64,000 bases of DNA from Escherichia coli (GTDB taxonomy: Bacteria; Pseudomonadota; Gammaproteobacteria; Enterobacterales; Enterobacteriaceae). Below, piece after piece: positions 4,818 to 41,315 of this stretch. Where the stretch lies: the NCBI RefSeq assembly GCF_051903065.1, contig NZ_CP178439.1; one strand, given 5' to 3'. A program made the translations under genes and the position numbers. How positions within the stretch are numbered: the first letter of the stretch is position 1; each line of letters begins with the position of its first letter. A model generated the notes under the pieces. That model did not search any database and had not been told where the DNA came from. It saw only the letters and a program-made list of their open reading frames with translations.

Positions 4818-4938
4818 TATGGGAAAAGTTACTTTGCCTGCTCTGCTTGGGGCCACCGTGATTGGTTTTGTCGTATTTGCTTTAACCAGCTTTTACTACA
4901 GGTCAGAATATATACCAAAAAGGGGTAATGACTCCAAC

Positions 4939-5442
4939 TTATTGATAGTGTTTTATGTTCAGATAATGCCCGATGACTTTGTCATGCAGCTCCACCGATT
5001 TTGAGAACGACAGCGACTTCCGTCCCAGCCGTGCCAGGTGCTGCCTCAGATTCAGGTTATGCCGCTCAATTCGCTGCGTATATCGCTTGCTGATTACGTG
5101 CAGCTTTCCCTTCAGGCGGGATTCATACAGCGGCCAGCCATCCGTCATCCATATCACCACGTCAAAGGGTGACAGCAGGCTCATAAGACGCCCCAGCGTC
5201 GCCATAGTGCGTTCACCGAATACGTGCGCAACAACCGTCTTCCGGAGCCTGTCATACGCGTAAAACAGCCAGCGCTGGCGCGATTTAGCCCCGACATAGC
5301 CCCACTGTTCGTCCATTTCCGCGCAGACGATGACGTCACTGCCCGGCTGTATGCGCGAGGTTACCGACTGCGGCCTGAGTTTTTTAAGTGACGTAAAATC
5401 GTGTTGAGGCCAACGCCCATAATGCGGGCTGTTGCCCGGCAT
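4939..5442 (-). CDS. insB: IS1 InsB (normally made as an InsAB fusion by frameshifting)
   Basis: 167-aa [25 protein letters not shown] matches IS1 InsB as I remember it. Confidence 0.85.
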
Positions 5443-5636
5443 CCAACGCCATTCATGGCCATATCAATGATTTTCTGGTGCGTACCGGGTTGAGAAGCGG
5501 TGTAAGTGAACTGCAGTTGCCATGTTTTACGGCAGTGAGAGCAGAGATAGCGCTGATGTCCGGCGGTGCTTTTGCCGTTACGCACCACCCCGTCAGTAGC
5601 TGAACAGGAGGGACAGCTGATAGAAACAGAAGCCAC
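5361..5636 (-). CDS. insA: IS1 InsA
   Basis: 91-aa [42 protein letters not shown] matches IS1 InsA as I remember it. Confidence 0.9.
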
Positions 5637-6033
5637 TGGAGCACCTCAAAAACACCATCATACACTAAATCAGTAAGTTGGCAGCATCACCCAAAAAGGA
5701 GTGTATTAATCGTTCCGGACGCACCCATTAGTATCGAAGATGGCAGTAACGCTTTTCCCGTTCAGACAGTAATAATGAACGATCCAACTCTTATTGATAA
5801 ATTTGTAGGAGAGGACAATATTAATGAGGAGAATGCTTTTGACTATCACAAAAGTAACGTTTTGGAACCTAATTACAAACATGAAATATCTAGAACGAGC
5901 CAGATAGATAAAGCTGAAATGAATCATCCATCTGTTCGTGAAAACTGGGCCAGAGCAGGTGATCCCTATATCGTTCCTCAGATGTCTGACAGCGAACGAA
6001 ATCTAAAAATTAAACGATTCCAGAAACCTACAA

Positions 6034-12829: not shown

Positions 12830-15800
12830 CTTTTAACTTATTTAACCCCCTTTATCGCCAATCTGTGATTTTCTAATGTTAGCCTACAGTTCTAGGGCCC
12901 TTGCTCCCATGATGCGAATCCTTCCACCTAATAAAGATTAACGCCTCATTCCTGTATGCCGGTCTTACGACGCCAGTGCTCGGGCTATTTTCGGTCCTAA
13001 CAAGACCTGGCGAGAGATTTAATCAGGGCGTGGTGTGACTGAGCAGCAGCTGGGGCACTGTTATCCGCTTGCAGATTTAACCCCCTTAATCGCCAAACTG
13101 GGGTACTGTCCTGATGCTGGCCTTCAGTTCTGGGCTGGGTGGCTATCACTTCCTCCCATAATGCGAAATGTAACTGCTGATACAGATTAACGTCATATTC
13201 CTGCGTGCCGGTCTGCCAACACCAGTGCACGGGCTTTTTTCGGTCATCACATTACCGGGCAGGAGATTTTATCAGGGCGTGGTGTGACTGAGCAGAAGCT
13301 GGGGCACTGTCAGCAGCTTGCAGATTTAACCCCCTTAATCGCCACACTGGGATTCTGGTCTGATATTGACCTTCCGTTCTGGGCGGGGTTCGGTTTGCTA
13401 ACACTTACTCCCATGATACGAAATGTGCCTGCTGATACAGATTAAAATCACATTACTGCATACCGGTCTGCCGACACCGGTGCATGGGCGATTTCCGACG
13501 ATCTCAAGAACATATGGGAGATTATATCAGGGAGAGTAGTATGCCTGAGCAGCATCTGAAGGCACTGTCAGCCGCTGTCAGATTTAACCCCCTTAATCGC
13601 CAAACTGGTGTTCTGTCCTCATGCAGGCCTTCAGTTCTGAGCTGGGTTGCTATCACTTGCTCCCATAATGCGAAATGTACCTGCTGATACAAATTAACGT
13701 CGTATTCCTGTATGCCGGTCTGCCGACACCAGTGCTCGGGCTATTTTCGGTCCTAACAAGACCTGGCGAGAGATTTAATCAGGGCGTGGTGTGACTGAGC
13801 AGCAGCTGGGGCACTGTTATCCGCTTGCAGATTTAACCCCCTTAATCGCCAAACTGGGGTACTGTCCTGATGCTGGCCTTCAGTTCTGGGCTGGGTGGCT
13901 ATCACTTCCTCCCATAATGCGAAATGTAACTGCTGATACAGATTAACGTCATATTCCTGCGTGCCGGTCTGCCAACACCAGTGCACGGGCTTTTTTCGGT
14001 CATCACATTACCGGGCAGGAGATTTTATCAGGGCGTGGTGTGACTGAGCAGAAGCTGGGGCACTGTCAGCAGCTTGCAGATTTAACCCCCTTAATCGCCA
14101 CACTGGGATTCTGGTCTGATATTGACCTTCCGTTCTGGGCGGGGTTCGGTTTGCTAACACTTACTCCCATGATACGAAATGTGCCTGCTGATACAGATTA
14201 AAATCACATTACTGCATACCGGTCTGCCGACACCGGTGCATGGGCGATTTCCGACGATCTCAAGAACATATGGGAGATTATATCAGGGAGAGTAGTATGC
14301 CTGAGCAGCATCTGAAGGCACTGTCAGCCGCTGTCAGATTTAACCCCCTTAATCGCCAAACTGGTGTTCTGTCCTCATGCAGGCCTTCAGTTCTGAGCTG
14401 GGTTGCTATCACTTGCTCCCATAATGCGAAATGTACCTGCTGATACAAATTAACGTCGTATTCCTGTATGCCGGTCTGCCGACACCAGTGCTCGGGCTAT
14501 TTTCGGTCCTAACAAGACCTGGCGAGAGATTTAATCAGGGCGTGGTGTGACTGAGCAGCAGCTGGGGCACTGTTATCCGCTTGCAGATTTAACCCCCTTA
14601 ATCGCCACACTGGGGTTCAGTCCTGATAGTGTCCTTCCGTCCTGGGCTCGGTTGCTAACACTTGCTCCCATTGCGCCTGCTGATACAGATTAAAGTCACA
14701 TTACTGCATACCGATCTGCCGACTCCGGTGCATGGCTTTTTCCGATAATCACAAGGACGGACGGGTGATTTTATCTTTGCATAGTATGTCTGAGCAGCAT
14801 CAGAAGGCTCTGTCAGCCACTGGCAGATTTAACCCCCTTAATCTCCAAACTGGGATCAGTCCTGATAGTGTCCTTCCGTCCTGGGCAGGGTTGCTAACAC
14901 TTGCTCCCATGATACGAAATGCGCCAGCTGATACAGATTAACGTCTCATTACTCCATGCCGGTCTGCCGAAACTGGTGCATAGCTTTTTTCGATATTCGC
15001 ATGAACAGACGCTTGATTTTTTCAGGTTGTAATATACCTGAGCAGCATCTGAAGGCACTTTCAGTCTCTGTCAGATTTAACCCCCTTAATCGCCAATCTG
15101 GGATTTTCTGATGTTAACCTACAGTTCAAGGCCCTTGCTCCCATGATGCGAACCTTGCAACCTGATAAAGATTTAAGCCTCATTCCTGTATGCCGGTCTT
15201 ACGACTCTAGTGCACGGGGACTATTTTCGGTCATAATAAGACCTGGCGGGAGATTTAATCAGGCGTGGTGTGACTGAGCAGAAGCTGGGGCACTGTCAGC
15301 CGCTGGCAGATTAAAACCCTTTATTCGCCATCTCAAGACGTCATTATGGGTAGTCCTTTTAACTTTCTAAGGACCATTAAGCTTAAACTCCGTTTAGAGA
15401 ATGACGTAAGATTTAGGCTAAGCAGGTTAAGTGATCCCCGCTCCCGGGTTGAACACTTTATTCATCGTACGAGCGAAAGATTGTCCTTCGGGAAATATTT
15501 CTTATACACCGCTCGGGCACTTACAGCCACTGGCGGATTTAACCCCCTTAATCGCCAAACTGGGGTACTGTCCTGATGCTGGCCTTCAGTTCTGGGCTGG
15601 GTGGCTATCACTTGCTCCCCTAATGCGAAATGTGTCTGTTGATACAGATTAACGTCATTTTCCTGCGTGCCGGTCTGCCGACACCAGTGCACGGCCTTTT
15701 TTCGGTCATTACATTACCGGGCAGGAGATTTTATCAGGGCGTGGTGTTACTGAGCAGGAGCTGGGGCACTATCAGCAGCTTGCATATTTAACTCCCTTAA

Positions 15801-16410
15801 TCGCCAAACTGGTGTTCTGTCCTCATGCTGGCCTTCAGTTCTGGGCTGGGTTGCTATCTCTTGCTCCCATAATGCGAAATGTATCTGCTGATACAGATTA
15901 ACGTCATATTCCTGTATGCCGGTCTGCCGACACCAGTGCTTGGGCTATTTTCGGTCATAACAAGACCTGGCGAGAGATTTACTCAGGGCGTGGTGTGACT
16001 GAGCAGCAGCTGGGGCACTGTCATCCGCTTGCAAATTTAACCCCCTTAATCGCCAAACTTGGGTTTTGTCCTGATGCTGGCCTTCCGTTCTGGGCGGGGT
16101 TGCTATCACTTGCTCCCATCATGCGAAAAGTGCCTGCTGATACAGATTAACGTCATATTCCTTCATGCCGGTCTGCCGACACAAATGCACGGGCTTTTTT
16201 CGGTCCTTACAATACCGGGCAGGAGATTTAATCAGGGCGTGGTGTGACTGAGCAGCAGCTAGGACACTGTCAGCCGCTGGCAGATTTAACCCCCTTAATC
16301 GCCACACTGGGGTTGCCTCCTGAAGTTGGGTTTCAGTTCTGGGCTAGGTTGCTAACTCTGCTCCCATAATTCGTAGTGGGCCTACTCAAGAGATTAACAC
16401 CTCATATCTT
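12830..16410. repeat. Tandem array of about 15 units of about 249 bp, including a near-identical 756-bp (three-unit) duplication
   Basis: Anchor CAGATTTAACCCCCTTAATCGCCA recurs at about 12836, 13072, 13321, 13579, 13828, 14077, 14335, 14584, 14824, 15072, 15306, 15534, 15782, 16032 and 16281; track ORF pairs 12997..13230 / 13753..13986 and 13484..13687 / 14240..14443 are identical. Confidence 0.9.
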
Positions 16411-21774: not shown

Positions 21775-22795
21775 AAATTCCTCTACGTATGTTTACATCG
21801 ATGATACGGTATTTCGAGCTATGATTTTTTTACATAAAGGCGTCATTTTGGATTCTAAGCCTAAGGACCTTTGTTACTTACTGGTAAAGGCTCCAGTCCT
21901 GGCTCTCAAACAGTTCATACTTAGGATGCAAAGTAACTTTCTGATTATAATTGGCTCCTTTATAAACATGTTTACTTCATGAATACAGGATATTTAACGG
22001 TAATGTATTTAAAATGGAAGGATGCTGAAATAACATAGAGTTACGTATTTTTTTAATAGTGTTGATGTTGATAATAGGTCACCATTAATGTATAAAGTTA
22101 ATATCTAATATGGTCCTATTAATAAAAGAGAGTTTTTATGGCTGAACTATTAAAATCTGAAAGTCCTGTTTCACAATCATTGCAGGATATCACTGAAGCT
22201 TTAAAAATCGTTGTCGATGATGGAAGTAAAGCTGCAAAACTGGTTTGTCTTAATGAAAGAAACGAATTAGTTCCCTTGCTCACACAAAATAGTTTTGTTC
22301 CAGATTTCCGTGTTCGCCATGAGGGTCTCAATCCTTTTAACTATCTTATTGATGGGCTGGAAAGGTTTTCGCATCACAGCGAATCTAGTAACTCACTGGA
22401 ATCGACTGATGTATCTCACCAATACGATGAAATTAGCCGGTTAAATGTTCACCATGCACTTCATGCTTCTGGTTTAGTTCCTCAGGATGTTCACCTCTTT
22501 GTTACTTTACCTCTTAGCCAGTTCTATACTGCTTTAGGGGAAACGAATATTGAAAATATTCAGAGAAAAAAAGATAACCTGATGAAACCAGTTGAGCGTT
22601 ATCTTGACGGTAAACGCTATTCTTTCAACGTTTTGTCTGTGACTGTTTTCCCTGAATCTTTACCAGCTGTGACCCGGGCAGATGAAATTGAGGATATTGC
22701 TTCATTTGAATCAAGTTTGGTAATTGATCTTGGTGGTACTACTCTTGATGTTGCAAGTATTACTGGGCAATTAGAACAGATTTCGAAAGTAAAAG

Positions 22796-23992
<1,197 letters not shown>

Positions 23993-36776: not shown

Positions 36777-37649
36777 TTACTTGGCTTTCAATGTTTTTTC
36801 TGGGAAGCCTTTTTTACCGTATTCACCGGTAAAGAGGTAATAATCTTTTCCGTTGATGGAGGCTGCAACACCCCCTGGAGTTGTTGTATTTGGGCTATCA
36901 GAACGGAAAATGATACCCGAAAAATCAGCGCTTGTTTCGTTTCCTTTAAATGGGATGAACACATAACGAATTACAGCGTAATCACCAGCGGGAAGGTTTA
37001 GCTGAGGAATTTCGGTTCCTGTTGCGGGGCGAATCGCCTGAAAGCTGTACATTGAATCTGTAGGGAAAACATCAGCATCAGGCTTAGAGGGCAGATCACA
37101 GGTACTCCATTTATTGACGACTGCCATATCAATTTTACATGTGGCCAGAGCTGCTTTCTGTTTTTCAGGGTTGTATCCAAATGAGGCCTGAGTTGCTTTT
37201 GTATGCTCAAAAACATACTTAGCTCCTTCACGTACCAAACTTTCATCATTGTAAGGCAATTTTTTTGGATTGGGGACGAACACTAGGTATTGATTGACCT
37301 GGATGTATTCGGCGTCAGAAGAACTGTACAAAGAGCCGAGGCTCATGATCCCAAAACCTTTTAGACCGCCTGTTACGTAGCCCATCGAACTATTGATGAG
37401 ATACTTAGAAAGAAAGTTGTCGGCATCCCCTCCAGGAGTAACCTCTTGCTCCTTAAAATTAACGTCGAAACCAGCAAACGAATAGGCATTCTTGGCGACA
37501 GAATCATTTGCTTTAGCATGCCAGTACTGGCCGTGACTGTACGCATTCAGAGCGGTGCCTGGCGTAGTGCCGGTGTCACCGGCACAACCCGATAGGGAAA
37601 AACCAATGACGACAGAAGAGACCAGAGATACTAAACGTAAAAGTTTCAT
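36777..37649 (-). CDS. Lipoprotein, unknown function
   Basis: 290 aa; lipobox LSGC after a signal peptide. Confidence 0.65.
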   Translation of the reverse strand: MKLLRLVSLVSSVVIGFSLSGCAGDTGTTPGTALNAYSHGQYWHAKANDSVAKNAYSFAGFDVNFKEQEVTPGGDADNFLSKYLINSSMGYVTGGLKGFGIMSLGSLYSSSDAEYIQVNQYLVFVPNPKKLPYNDESLVREGAKYVFEHTKATQASFGYNPEKQKAALATCKIDMAVVNKWSTCDLPSKPDADVFPTDSMYSFQAIRPATGTEIPQLNLPAGDYAVIRYVFIPFKGNETSADFSGIIFRSDSPNTTTPGGVAASINGKDYYLFTGEYGKKGFPEKTLKAK

Positions 37650-37828
37650 TTAAAGCCCTTTTTGTAATGTCTTTTGGAGATGGAACCATTATTCCATAGT
37701 CACGCGTTTCACAAACAACCTGATTGCATAAAAAAGGAAAAAAAGTGATTTCCAGTAGAACCAGCAGTACACAAGAAAAGCGCTTTTATAAAAATGTATA
37801 ATTATTAAAACGAAGTAATGAGGTTGAA

Positions 37829-39613
37829 ATGGGTAAGCCAACAGAAGAGCAAAGACCTGTTATCGAGAATGCTAGCGCAAACAATATGGTGATAGCAGCG
37901 CCTGGATCAGGCAAATCATTCACCATGATAGAAGCGGTTATATCGATTCTCAAAAAGTATCCATATGCAAGAATCGGGATGGTGACCTTTACTCGCGCTG
38001 CAACAAACGCACTTGCAGCAAAGTTACAAAAGCGATTGAGCAAGAAGGATCTTGACCGGGTGCTGGTGGATACTTTTCACGGACTCGTTAAGAAGCAACT
38101 GGACATGATTCGCTGGCCGGGAAAGATGTTGATAGGGCCAGCACAGAGATCTGTCATTCACCGGGCTTTGAAAGAATCCGGTGTAACGATGAAGTTTGCT
38201 GAAGCTGAATTCGTTATTGATGCTATCGGCAGAGAAATGGATACGGATGTGATTTCAGTTCGGCATAACAGACAACAGATCCATTTATTTAATACCTATC
38301 AGGCGTTATGCCAGAAAGACCATGTGGCGGACCTCAATGCTCTTTCAAAATTTGTTGTCGGTCAAATGCATTCGGGAAAAATGCGCACGTTAGATTTGAC
38401 ACATTTGATAGTAGACGAAGTTCAGGATACTGACTCTATACAATTCTCATGGATAGCATTGCATACAAGAGCTGGAGTCTATACGAGTATAGTTGGAGAC
38501 GATGATCAGGCCATCTACTCCTTCAGATCCTCAGGAGGAGTCAAAATATTTCAACAGTTTGAAAAACACTTCAGACCTAACATATTTTACTTAAACACAT
38601 GCTTTAGGTGTGAACCTGAAATTTTAGAGGTGGCCGGAGCACTGATAGGAAAGAATGTTTACCGTTATGCCAAAGAGTTACGCTCGGCAAAAAAGGGAGG
38701 AGGAAAGGTCACTTTTCGTTCATATGTAGATATGGAGGAACAGATACAGGGTATTTTAAGCCTTATAAATCAGGATCCACATGGATGGGCAATTCTAAGC
38801 CGCAATAATGCTCACTTGGATGAGCTAGAAAGTTTGATCGAACAGCCAGTAATTCGTTACGGAGGTAAATCATTCTGGGATGAAAAAGAAACAAGCGATG
38901 TGTTAAGCCTTATGGCCTTTTTCCGACAATCAAATGATCCTCGCTTAATGAAGAGAGTATTGGCATTGTTTGGAGAACAGGAATCAGTTTTGGATGAAGT
39001 GGCATTGAGTATGAGAGGAAGAAAAGTTACTTTTGGCGACCTTGCCATCCCGGAGGACAGTTCTCTCGAAACAAAAACATTACATTCAAACTTCGTGCGC
39101 TTTACCCAGGAAAGTACTGATAAAGTTGAGATAGCAAAACGTTTCGCCAACCTTACGAAATGGATGGAATCGTCGTCAATCAAGATGAGGAGTAATAAAG
39201 GTACAGCAACCTTAACAAAAATTGCTTTAGACACTTGTAAACAGTGGGCAGAAAAGACTGGTTGGATGAATATGATCAATCGTGCTGCTGCAATGTCATT
39301 AGGCCCTAGGAAGAAGGACGAGGAATACAGCCCAGAGAAAGTAGTCCTATCAACCTTGCATGGTTCAAAGGGTCTTGAGTGGAATAAAGTAATAATAATG
39401 AGTTGTAATGCGGATCAGATACCAAGTAAAAGATCAGTTGGGGAGGAGGCAATAGAAGAAGAAAGACGTTTGCTTTATGTTGGATTTACGCGTGCAGAAA
39501 AGCAACTTTTTGTAATGTGGTATGGTGACCCTTCTTTCTTTTTAAGAGAATGCAGTGAAGAAAAGATAAAAGAAGCAGCTAATATTCGAATTTCTCCAGT
39601 TTATACAGAATAA
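37829..39613 (+). CDS. UvrD/Rep-like superfamily 1 DNA helicase
   Basis: 594 aa; motif I AAPGSGKSFT, motif II LIVDEVQDT, motif VI VGFTRAEKQL. Confidence 0.8.
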   Translation: MGKPTEEQRPVIENASANNMVIAAPGSGKSFTMIEAVISILKKYPYARIGMVTFTRAATNALAAKLQKRLSKKDLDRVLVDTFHGLVKKQLDMIRWPGKMLIGPAQRSVIHRALKESGVTMKFAEAEFVIDAIGREMDTDVISVRHNRQQIHLFNTYQALCQKDHVADLNALSKFVVGQMHSGKMRTLDLTHLIVDEVQDTDSIQFSWIALHTRAGVYTSIVGDDDQAIYSFRSSGGVKIFQQFEKHFRPNIFYLNTCFRCEPEILEVAGALIGKNVYRYAKELRSAKKGGGKVTFRSYVDMEEQIQGILSLINQDPHGWAILSRNNAHLDELESLIEQPVIRYGGKSFWDEKETSDVLSLMAFFRQSNDPRLMKRVLALFGEQESVLDEVALSMRGRKVTFGDLAIPEDSSLETKTLHSNFVRFTQESTDKVEIAKRFANLTKWMESSSIKMRSNKGTATLTKIALDTCKQWAEKTGWMNMINRAAAMSLGPRKKDEEYSPEKVVLSTLHGSKGLEWNKVIIMSCNADQIPSKRSVGEEAIEEERRLLYVGFTRAEKQLFVMWYGDPSFFLRECSEEKIKEAANIRISPVYTE

Positions 39614-39854
39614 TTCGATATGGGCATTTACTTATGCTTAAAGCTATAGTATAAAAACAATGAGCTTAAATATCAGCTCCCAAATTTGAGTAACTTTGCT
39701 TAAAGTTACTTTCGCGTTAAGCGTTGATTTAGCCGTGAAAAGCGGCCAGCTTAAACAAGCTGTAAGACACCACCGGCAAAATGTCACCTTTGTCGCTGGT
39801 GCACTTCCCATGCCTGAAAAAGGCAATCTGAATTTACCAAACCGTAACTAATTT

Positions 39855-39877
39855 AGCTCCTCCTGGAGCTATTTTTG
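39855..39877 (+). terminator. Hairpin plus T-run downstream of the helicase gene
   Basis: AGCTCCtcctGGAGCT followed by ATTTTT. Confidence 0.45.
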
Positions 39878-40007
39878 TTGCGTACTTCTAATGCCAGATA
39901 GTATAAATCAGGCGGTTCATAGCTTACGGGAGATGAATGACAGGCTTTGCCTTCGTGTTGAAACAAAAAATTGTTTCTTCCTTCTTACTATATATAGGTG
40001 ACCCCAA

Positions 40008-40880
40008 ATGTCTAAAAATAAAGCTCGCAGTAAAGCCCTTCATCAAACCTTTAGTGAAATTATTCCAGAGATGGATAAGGCGCTAAACAAACAGCTCTTA
40101 GAAGTTCTGATGAAATATACAGAACGTGATAATGAACTGATTGTTATTTTGAATGAGGACGGCCCAAATATCATTGAACTTAAGTCTCTTAAGCCTGTGT
40201 CTTTGTTGGCCGAAAAGCTTTCTGCTTATTCAAGCTATTATCATGTGGATGTTGTGGAGCTCGTGGTCAAGAAAATTGATTTCGAAGGAGCTTATAAGCT
40301 TCTTAAAGCTTCCCCAGATGTACCACTTTTTAAAAGCTTAACTGAACTGGATAAATATCTTGTTGAGGAGTTTGAAAAATACGGATTAAATTCATTTCTT
40401 GACGTGGATAATCTGGATTACTCACTTGAAAAAGCCAGTGAACTCAAAAATGAGCAGTTAATAAATTGGGTTTCGGACATCATTTGCAAACGTGAAAAAT
40501 TAACTTTACGTAAGCGTTTTGATGTCGCAGTAAAGGCCCACTACGAAAATGTAGAAAAAATGTATGATACCATTCGTCCGTTAATGAAAAAACTGGGTTT
40601 CCCAGAAGATCTCATGACGCACACCTTTAGTGAGTTAAGCGTTTTTGAAACTAAAGGATGGGACCATGCAATAAAATCGAAAATTGAGACTCTCGCTAAG
40701 CGTGAAACTCAATATTTAGATGATGCGGCTAAAGCAGAGAATCGACGTCTTGTAACAGAGAAGTTGGAGAACTCTTTAGCGATTGCACCAACTAAACCAA
40801 CAAGAAATTGGTTACATATTGCCGGAATTGCCTGTTTGGTAGTCTGCACGTTCATGTATGTAACTAATAAATTTATTTAA
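40008..40880 (+). CDS. Hypothetical protein with C-terminal membrane anchor
   Basis: 290 aa; C-terminal hydrophobic helix WLHIAGIACLVVCTFMYV. Confidence 0.55.
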   Translation: MSKNKARSKALHQTFSEIIPEMDKALNKQLLEVLMKYTERDNELIVILNEDGPNIIELKSLKPVSLLAEKLSAYSSYYHVDVVELVVKKIDFEGAYKLLKASPDVPLFKSLTELDKYLVEEFEKYGLNSFLDVDNLDYSLEKASELKNEQLINWVSDIICKREKLTLRKRFDVAVKAHYENVEKMYDTIRPLMKKLGFPEDLMTHTFSELSVFETKGWDHAIKSKIETLAKRETQYLDDAAKAENRRLVTEKLENSLAIAPTKPTRNWLHIAGIACLVVCTFMYVTNKFI

Positions 40881-40937
40881 TCCTGTTAAGGGGGAACCCT
40901 AACGGGGCTTCTCTTTGAACAAATCGAGGAGCGGAAA

Positions 40938-41315
40938 ATGTCATATCTTGAATATATCAATGAAGTAAAAGTGTCCGGGATAGTTATCAGTGCTGTGGAG
41001 AAAAAAATGACTGACCAGAGTATAGGTTTGTTAATAAAGCTCAAAAATAGGATGAAGACAGAAGTTGATGGTGAAATCACTGAGAGAGAATTTTCAGTTC
41101 AAATCAAGGTGTCGCCTGAAATGTATTCAACCTGTTTCACTGGTATAAATCAGGGTGATGAGTTGATGGTCTCCGGTTATATTGTTGTCGATACTATTAT
41201 GATTGAAGGGAGAGAACATCCTCTTGACTACATGAGAGTGGTAGCAACAAGTAAGTTGGCTCACATACCTAAACCTCTAAAAGGTTTTGGACAAAGTAGC
41301 TTTAATCAGATCTGA
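40938..41315 (+). CDS. Hypothetical small protein
   Basis: 125-aa ORF with an RBS-like GAGGAG upstream. Confidence 0.5.
   Translation: MSYLEYINEVKVSGIVISAVEKKMTDQSIGLLIKLKNRMKTEVDGEITEREFSVQIKVSPEMYSTCFTGINQGDELMVSGYIVVDTIMIEGREHPLDYMRVVATSKLAHIPKPLKGFGQSSFNQI

Follow-up and report, generated by a model that had tools for sequence, protein, structure and literature searches.

The window analysed here, a 64,000-nucleotide (nt) stretch from Escherichia coli, is the Tra2 side of an IncHI2 plasmid, and pAPEC-O1-R and over 1,100 further IncHI2 plasmids match it at 100% identity. At the locus under study lie the helicase gene trhI and, downstream of it, an inverted repeat made of two copies of a short palindrome, AAAGTNACTTT, that is dispersed over the plasmid backbone; both stand ahead of a cluster of nine genes on the same strand. 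An earlier note on this DNA had pointed to a 594-amino-acid (aa) open reading frame (ORF) for a helicase with intact ATPase motifs, and the ORF and an alignment of its motifs agree with that description. The product is 100% identical to WP_000517886.1, which RefSeq names “IncHI-type conjugal transfer helicase TrhI,” and the microarray tables of plasmid R27 give the corresponding gene, R0003, as “trhI, DNA helicase” (PMC7366339). We found trhI in more than 1,300 IncHI plasmids; its orthologue shares 82% identity with it in IncHI1 (pHCM1) and about 48% in IncHI3.

The gene order around trhI is shared by IncHI1, IncHI2 and IncHI3: trhN is followed by an opposite-strand lipoprotein-like gene, trhI, three genes without a family match, an AAA_5 (CobS-like) ATPase, a DUF3150 protein, a VWA (CobT-like) protein, a small gene and a primase-like Toprim protein, with a Tus homologue farther on. 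A Vibrio campbellii megaplasmid has a matching order, with a TrhI that is 31% identical, and in this plasmid as in all three IncHI groups trhI is located at the Tra2 end, beside trhN; the IncHI3 and Vibrio plasmids, too, have an opposite-strand gene at the position inferred for R0004. Because this order has been kept, trhI is not the “orphan” that the earlier note took it for but a fixed part of an old conjugative backbone, and it is an already known, named gene rather than a novelty. The statement that the helicase has no adjacent nuclease or ATPase partner is correct for its immediate neighbours; it does not extend to the AAA_5 ATPase, the VWA protein and the Toprim protein, all encoded on the same strand 3-8 kb downstream.

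The Pfam search of TrhI returned UvrD-helicase, UvrD_C, AAA_19 and UvrD_C_2, the first two above their cut-offs, and no accessory domain, which upholds the description of a compact superfamily 1 (SF1) UvrD-like helicase. A protein alignment of the IncHI1, IncHI2 and IncHI3 orthologues shows no variation in motifs I (GSGKS), Ia (TFTRAA), II (DEVQD), III (GDDDQAIYSFR), V (TLHGSKGLEW) and VI (VGFTRAE). The nearest solved structure is that of E. coli UvrD (E = 5e-33, UvrD residues 12-614), followed by Rep and PcrA, and the homology to UvrD spans the whole 1A-1B-2A-2B core. Against the NCBIfam equivalog profiles, TrhI scored 176-180 bits for Rep/UvrD and 159 for PcrA, where the cut-offs are 911-1,144; with scores so far under the orthologue cut-offs, TrhI is a member of the family and not an orthologue of UvrD, Rep or PcrA, and as judged from its sequence it is a separate compact SF1A branch without the C-terminal ~100 residues of UvrD.

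Profile searches also raise the question of whether TrhI could be GajB, the helicase half of a Gabija-like anti-phage defence system, given that the PADLOC GajB profiles match it over its full length (E = 3e-42) and that the two are similar in size at about 600 aa. Lower E-values were, however, obtained from the UvrD/Rep profiles and from the phage helicase family phrog_1967, though these belong to different libraries. GajA, the OLD-family ATPase-Toprim nuclease, went unmatched in both neighbours and in the seven downstream proteins; the neighbours are the lipoprotein-like gene and proteins without a family match, and the sole Toprim protein lies 8 kb off, is primase-like and matches phrog_510. 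Since there is no GajA and the genes are ordered as in a conjugative backbone rather than a defence island, we reject membership in Gabija, an assignment that we regard as scarcely credible.

The sequence downstream of trhI had been described as a 20-bp inverted pair of half-sites of a dispersed motif. The inverted repeat is real, its arms (39689-39697, AGTAACTTT; 39702-39710, AAAGTTACT) being 100% complementary across a 4-nt spacer, but it measures 22 bp; it is indeed built from the dispersed motif, as two whole palindromes 15 bp apart, one degenerate and one perfect. The window has 17 copies of the 9-mer AAAGTTACT where 0.81 would be expected, a count reached in 0 of 100 shuffles, and because 16 of the 17 run on with TT, the unit is no half-site but the complete 11-bp palindrome AAAGTNACTTT. 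Exact copies of this palindrome number 19 in the window (~0.1 expected), 13 in a 42-kb IncHI1 stretch (0.07 expected), 19 in IncHI3 (0.10 expected) and 49 in the whole 241-kb pAPEC-O1-R (~0.5 expected), and it is the sole strongly enriched 5-N-5 palindrome both in the window and in IncHI1. In pAPEC-O1-R the copies are dense in Tra2, Tra1 and backbone genes of unknown function, whereas the resistance, Tn7-like, sil and pco regions have almost none. The motif is sharp, the window holding 19 exact copies versus 11 with one mismatch; its flanks show only a slight bias, towards A in front and T behind.

Conservation of the palindrome was assessed against IncHI1, where the overall identity is 73%. 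All 10 of the alignable copies are intact at orthologous positions, compared with 7.8% of random 10-of-11 windows (P≈9e-12 for 10/10); the centre base is free and differs in three of the ten. Eight of the 19 window copies are intergenic and 11 are coding, 7 of these in the frame K-V-T-F/L. The copy inside trhI (Table 1) falls on the same codons in IncHI1 (offset 1194) and IncHI3 (offset 1197), and in the protein RKVTF is invariant although the residues on either side differ in IncHI3; matching offsets in IncHI1, IncHI2 and IncHI3 are also seen for the two rsp copies and for the copy at the beginning of trhU, conservation in IncHI3 having been assessed by coordinates and protein alignment. At the level of sequence comparison this is strong evidence that the palindrome is a functional DNA element under strong purifying selection, even inside genes.

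The earlier note had further seen the inverted repeat as tying the helicase to the palindrome. A functional tie does not hold: the backbone has 49 copies, and the 26 kb examined of the Vibrio plasmid, which shares the trhI gene order, contain a single copy and no palindrome that is enriched, so that the link between helicase and palindrome is positional.

Table 1. Features of the trhI locus, in window coordinates
Feature	Position	Strand	Basis or remark
Divergent 290-aa gene with LSGC lipoprotein-type signal sequence, between trhN and trhI	36777..37649	-	Inferred R0004 orthologue; “lipoprotein” in pHCM1 annotation
trhI, 594-aa SF1A UvrD/Rep/PcrA-like helicase (R0003 of R27)	37829..39613	+	ORF, ATG start; Pfam; RefSeq name
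Palindrome copy inside trhI, AAAGTTACTTT	39023..39033		Codes K399-V-T-F402
Conserved structured non-coding stretch, eight consecutive hairpins, ~230 nt	39655..39885	+	Folding; inverted repeat is hairpin 2
Degenerate palindrome TGAGTAACTTT, holds left arm	39687..39697		CAAGTAACTTT in IncHI1; more degenerate in pMB3888B_1
Perfect palindrome AAAGTTACTTT, holds right arm	39702..39712		Invariant in four aligned lineages; kept versus IncHI1
Intrinsic-terminator-like hairpin TAGCTCCTCCTGGAGCTA and T-run, last hairpin of the stretch	39854..39879	+	Scan; hairpin 39854-39871
Promoter-like block and leader start	39878..39917	+	-35 TTGCGT 39878-39883, 18-nt spacer, -10 TATAAA 39902-39907
290-aa gene, first of the nine-gene cluster	40008..40880	+	Inferred R0002 orthologue; R-number from gene order

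Further copies of the palindrome were noted at particular places. A second K-V-T-F in TrhI (aa 293-296, window 38705-38715) is encoded by AAGGTCACTTT, one mismatch from the motif, and the same codons form an exact palindrome in IncHI3; sites have thus apparently been gained and lost at tolerant peptide positions. Some copies fall in the first few codons of genes (window 4825, 7910 and 32500, and also 25060), three of them overlapping N-terminal signal-peptide-like codons, in htdO (GKVTL), htdT and trhU (KKLL). Three others, in Tra1, cluster in or beside the intergenic region upstream of mobI (L007 20256, 20697 and 21182; pAPEC-O1-R 170256-171192), which is the place of oriT in related MOBH elements.

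The spacer from trhI to the next gene is 394 bp long and contains the structured stretch of eight hairpins. Its folding gives a minimum free energy of -76 kcal/mol, with z=-6.6 on the + strand versus z=-3.3 on the - strand, and the inverted repeat keeps its place as the second hairpin in both the minimum-energy and the centroid folds. In the divergent pC27A-CTX-M-55 lineage the stem CAGCTT/AAGCTG has become CTATTT/AAATAG, which amounts to three compensatory pairs; other stems in this lineage and in IncHI1 are retained via U-G wobbles that suit the + strand only, and the spacer and indel differences among the lineages are not multiples of three, which lends no support to a conserved coding frame. 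The support for structure comes from inspection of the alignment of four lineages, whose four-sequence consensus fold is thin and partly misaligned, and we regard the covariation as suggestive rather than conclusive. Rfam gave no match in window positions 37000-41000, even at E≤1. The stem of the terminator-like hairpin is kept in IncHI1 and pC27A, partly by U-G wobble. A role as intrinsic terminator was considered for the inverted repeat as well and set aside: its stem is A+T-rich and followed by TTCGCG, the scan did not list it, and the terminator-like hairpin lies 150 bp further. A possible promoter for a small RNA, TGGGCA-18-TATAGT (39621-39650), is poorly conserved in other lineages, and for this reason the stretch is read as belonging to the trhI transcript; it is probably the trhI 3' untranslated region (UTR) or a 3'-derived RNA, and it is a candidate insulator between trhI and the next operon.

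This fold brings with it another explanation of the inverted repeat, namely that it acts only as an RNA or single-stranded DNA hairpin, within a trhI 3' UTR, small RNA or insulator, and that its likeness to the palindrome is incidental. Hairpin 2 does lie within the stretch with z=-6.6, other hairpins do have compensatory changes and G-U wobbles fitting the + strand, and in pMB3888B_1 the left arm drifts from the motif and is still able to pair. Yet the right copy is the exact 11-mer in all lineages, including the TT beyond the stem, and single palindromes, which cannot form a hairpin, are equally conserved elsewhere; moreover, the intergenic region of IncHI3 has a single copy, placed directly against the promoter-like block. 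The two roles are in any case compatible, and we consider it rather unlikely that the hairpin is all there is to the inverted repeat.

The promoter-like block that follows the terminator-like hairpin is unique in the window, and its positions 39886-39917 are nearly invariant in an alignment of IncHI1, IncHI2 and IncHI3 although the flanking proteins are ~50% identical. As its -35 element is weak and was missed by a consensus scan, the promoter is something that we infer. Genes R0204 to R0002 of R27, nine in number, form one cluster (PMC7366339), which by gene order corresponds to the nine genes after trhI, from the 290-aa gene, for which profile searches gave no family match, to the Toprim gene. 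In R27 this cluster is under HtdA repression and its expression rises 5- to 23-fold at 25 °C, and the five of its genes with retrieved values for the htdA mutant (R0001, R0002, R0207-R0210) go up 19- to 61-fold there; R0003 and R0002 are regulated separately, consistent with the promoter-like block (PMC7366339). The structured, terminator-ended stretch would separate the constitutive trhI from the promoter of the low-temperature-induced nine-gene cluster, and the doubled palindrome probably takes part in marking or regulating this boundary.

Because AAAGTNACTTT is symmetric, we propose that it is read by a dimeric, plasmid-specific DNA-binding factor, for which the copies would be candidate binding sites. 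The literature that could be searched makes no mention of the palindrome or of palindromes in IncHI plasmids, and in it the array of about 50 copies across the plasmid appears to be undescribed; the array resembles known dispersed-operator networks. That a plasmid factor reads the whole array and acts globally is a tentative suggestion, possible but not one that we would expect to be right. Factor and array together might, for instance, be what the plasmid-wide, HtdA-dependent control observed in R27 acts through at the DNA level; alternatively, the array might serve compaction or as a “self” signal. The doubled copy behind trhI, set in a structured RNA-like element, would then be a special point of control over the replication-like operon downstream, which low temperature induces. 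No DNA-binding domain was recognisable in HtdA or R0002. Two further ideas were tried and dropped: R0002 was considered as an AcaB-like regulator but has no similarity to the AcaB family, and a proximal operator for TrhR/TrhY is disfavoured because the intergenic region (L007 18712-19306) ahead of the inferred Tra1 F (pilus) operon has no palindrome.

The sharpness of the motif bears on a different kind of reader. AAAGTNACTTT might not be an operator at all but either a “self” mark or the site recognised by a sequence-specific enzyme of the plasmid, which could be a methyltransferase, a nuclease or a nicking enzyme. In favour of this, 11 one-mismatch copies stand beside 19 exact ones, where by chance the mismatched copies should far outnumber the exact; the core is GTNAC-like, and the plasmid has several apparently solitary DNA methyltransferase genes as well as HNH or NERD nuclease genes. 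Restriction-type sites, however, are usually avoided in genomes and here the sequence is enriched ~100-fold, no candidate enzyme is linked to the motif, and the enrichment at gene boundaries fits a role in transcription or DNA architecture better. We consider an enzyme site improbable.

Still less probable, in our view, is a centromere-like function in which ParB would bind the dispersed palindromes much as KorB binds the OB sites of RK2. The pattern is like the KorB-OB arrangement and a ParA/ParB pair is encoded inside Tra2, but the ParB here is P1-type (PF08775) and not KorB-like; the 249-bp array beside parA contains zero palindromes, even with one mismatch allowed; the Tra2 of IncHI3 is without this Par module yet has 19 palindromes; and parA and parB are HtdA-independent, unlike most backbone genes (PMC7366339). 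The 249-bp tandem array itself has ~13 copies of its repeat, and lies between trhC and parA (window 12900-16370), where it could act as the Par1 centromere or determine incompatibility.

As for TrhI, the setting in which it would work is given by the relaxase of the plasmid, a separate 1,050-aa MobH protein in which the TraI_2 relaxase domain is the sole match and in which the profile search found no P-loop helicase domain. A relaxase-helicase fusion of the F TraI or R388 TrwC type does not apply, TrhI being without a relaxase domain and scoring 18.1 bits for AAA_30 against a cut-off of 27. In rolling-circle plasmids and in ICEBs1, PcrA and UvrD act together with a nicking initiator protein, and this is the mechanistic precedent. 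By analogy, TrhI would most likely be a motor, supplied by the plasmid, that unwinds DNA after the MOBH relaxase has nicked it, providing the helicase function that the relaxase does not contain, and host UvrD or Rep could partly replace it. The earlier note's suggestion of a possible role in conjugative DNA processing agrees with the published name and with the position at the Tra2 end.

Helicases of other plasmids were compared with TrhI. In Burkholderia pMBR02 a compact UvrD-like helicase ends a MOBH relaxase-traD-DUF4400 operon (L015 3147-10665); since its identity to TrhI is just 27%, orthology is not established. A Hydrogenophaga plasmid has a compact UvrD-like helicase that is ~27% identical to TrhI and adjoins a conjugation regulator of the AcaB family (L014 8019-10782). 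Helicases ≤25% identical to TrhI were found in unrelated settings and are uninformative on its role.

A serious rival to the transfer motor is that TrhI is a maintenance helicase, an accessory motor like Rep or UvrD in vegetative replication or repair and not in transfer, which could for example clear tight proteins or transcription complexes ahead of the fork on a large, AT-rich, protein-coated plasmid. Its neighbours look replication-like, with the Toprim protein (phrog_510) and, farther along, the Tus homologue, and the Vibrio and Hydrogenophaga plasmids have genes for single-stranded DNA-binding protein (SSB) near the helicase. A 125-aa protein encoded downstream was examined as an SSB and rejected: it had no family match at any threshold, and position alone matches the Vibrio plasmid SSB gene. 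Expression of trhI in R27 is constitutive and temperature-independent, 560 units being measured at 25 °C against 494 at 37 °C (1.13-fold), and the authors of that study do not class it as a tra gene (PMC7366339). On the other side, trhI is at the Tra2 end in every IncHI group, a similar helicase is tied to the relaxase operon in pMBR02, and trhI is derepressed along with the tra genes in the transfer-derepressed htdA mutant of R27, where it rises 8.7-fold (PMC7366339). We hold maintenance to be a real possibility, though on balance an unlikely one.

The reading that we prefer joins the two elements: TrhI would unwind relaxase-nicked DNA, the palindrome would be the site of a dimeric factor, and the doubled copy would mark or regulate the boundary between trhI and the nine-gene cluster. 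We give this combination an even chance, and several observations weigh against it. The doubled copy lies ~200 bp upstream of the promoter-like block and before the terminator in IncHI1 and IncHI2, which is a non-classical position for an operator; no binder of the palindrome emerged from the candidates considered, ParB, HtdA and R0002 among them; and so sharp a motif fits an enzyme recognition site as well as it fits an operator. The pMBR02 helicase is no nearer to TrhI than chromosomal UvrD is. The accessible literature contains no functional or mutant data for TrhI, only uses in naming and typing, and in the Tra2 mutagenesis by Lawley and colleagues in 2003 trhI is reportedly not among the essential transfer genes. 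A deletion study of Rts1, a related MOBH plasmid, counts 32 conjugation genes, and the word “helicase” is absent from its main text. In the R27 transcriptome, trhI is outside the 35 tra genes counted and is not induced at the temperature permissive for transfer (PMC7366339). Taken as a whole, then, what the earlier note had observed at this locus is confirmed, with the half-site corrected to a complete palindrome, and its interpretation is partly supported.

Two other differences from pAPEC-O1-R were seen elsewhere in the window. A copy of the insertion sequence IS1, with a 9-bp target duplication, occupies window 4924-5690 within the transfer gene htdO, and it may have an effect on the transfer of this particular plasmid. 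Beside an IS5-family element (ISKpn26-like) at window 22138-23923, 1,229 bp are absent; this loss has cut parM to a 234-aa ORF (345 aa otherwise) and removed the parR-like gene that follows, and these two changes appear to have inactivated the Par2 module.

Multidrug, colistin (mcr) and typhoid-associated resistance have major vehicles in the IncHI plasmids, whose temperature-controlled transfer is not fully understood. The helicase adds nothing new to this beyond the testable idea that TrhI may replace the helicase domain absent from the MOBH relaxase. More is to be gained from the palindrome array, whose precise and conserved sequence could serve right away as bait for a global DNA-binding factor and which may explain why the loss of HtdA derepresses most backbone genes of R27. 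The structured element downstream of trhI, too, is of interest as a candidate for a regulatory RNA bordering an operon that is coregulated with conjugation.

Compared with known systems, the gene of the window is the same as trhI of R27 (WP_000517886.1), identical in its protein and in its position after trhN and the opposite-strand lipoprotein-like gene. With UvrD, Rep and PcrA, TrhI shares all motifs and the core, and it differs from them in being plasmid-borne, in the missing C-terminal ~100 residues and in a score of ~180 bits versus at least 911. GajB of Gabija is likewise a UvrD-like protein of ~600 aa, whereas TrhI is without a GajA partner and belongs to a conjugative backbone. For the array, the RK2 network offers one comparison: its KorB OB sites are 12 copies of a 13-bp odd palindrome, in and between genes. 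Like these, the IncHI sites are short, exact, odd-length palindromes found in promoter regions and in genes and conserved among relatives; unlike them, they have another sequence and number 49 rather than 12, and the ParB of the plasmid is P1-type, with no KorB-like protein identified. The other comparison is with the DNA uptake sequences (DUS) of Neisseria and the uptake signal sequences (USS) of Haemophilus, which resemble the IncHI motif in being sharp and dispersed, in having a preferred reading frame and in forming a hairpin after a gene where two copies are paired in inverted orientation; DUS and USS, however, are non-palindromic and serve natural transformation, whereas the IncHI copies are each palindromic and are carried by a conjugative plasmid.

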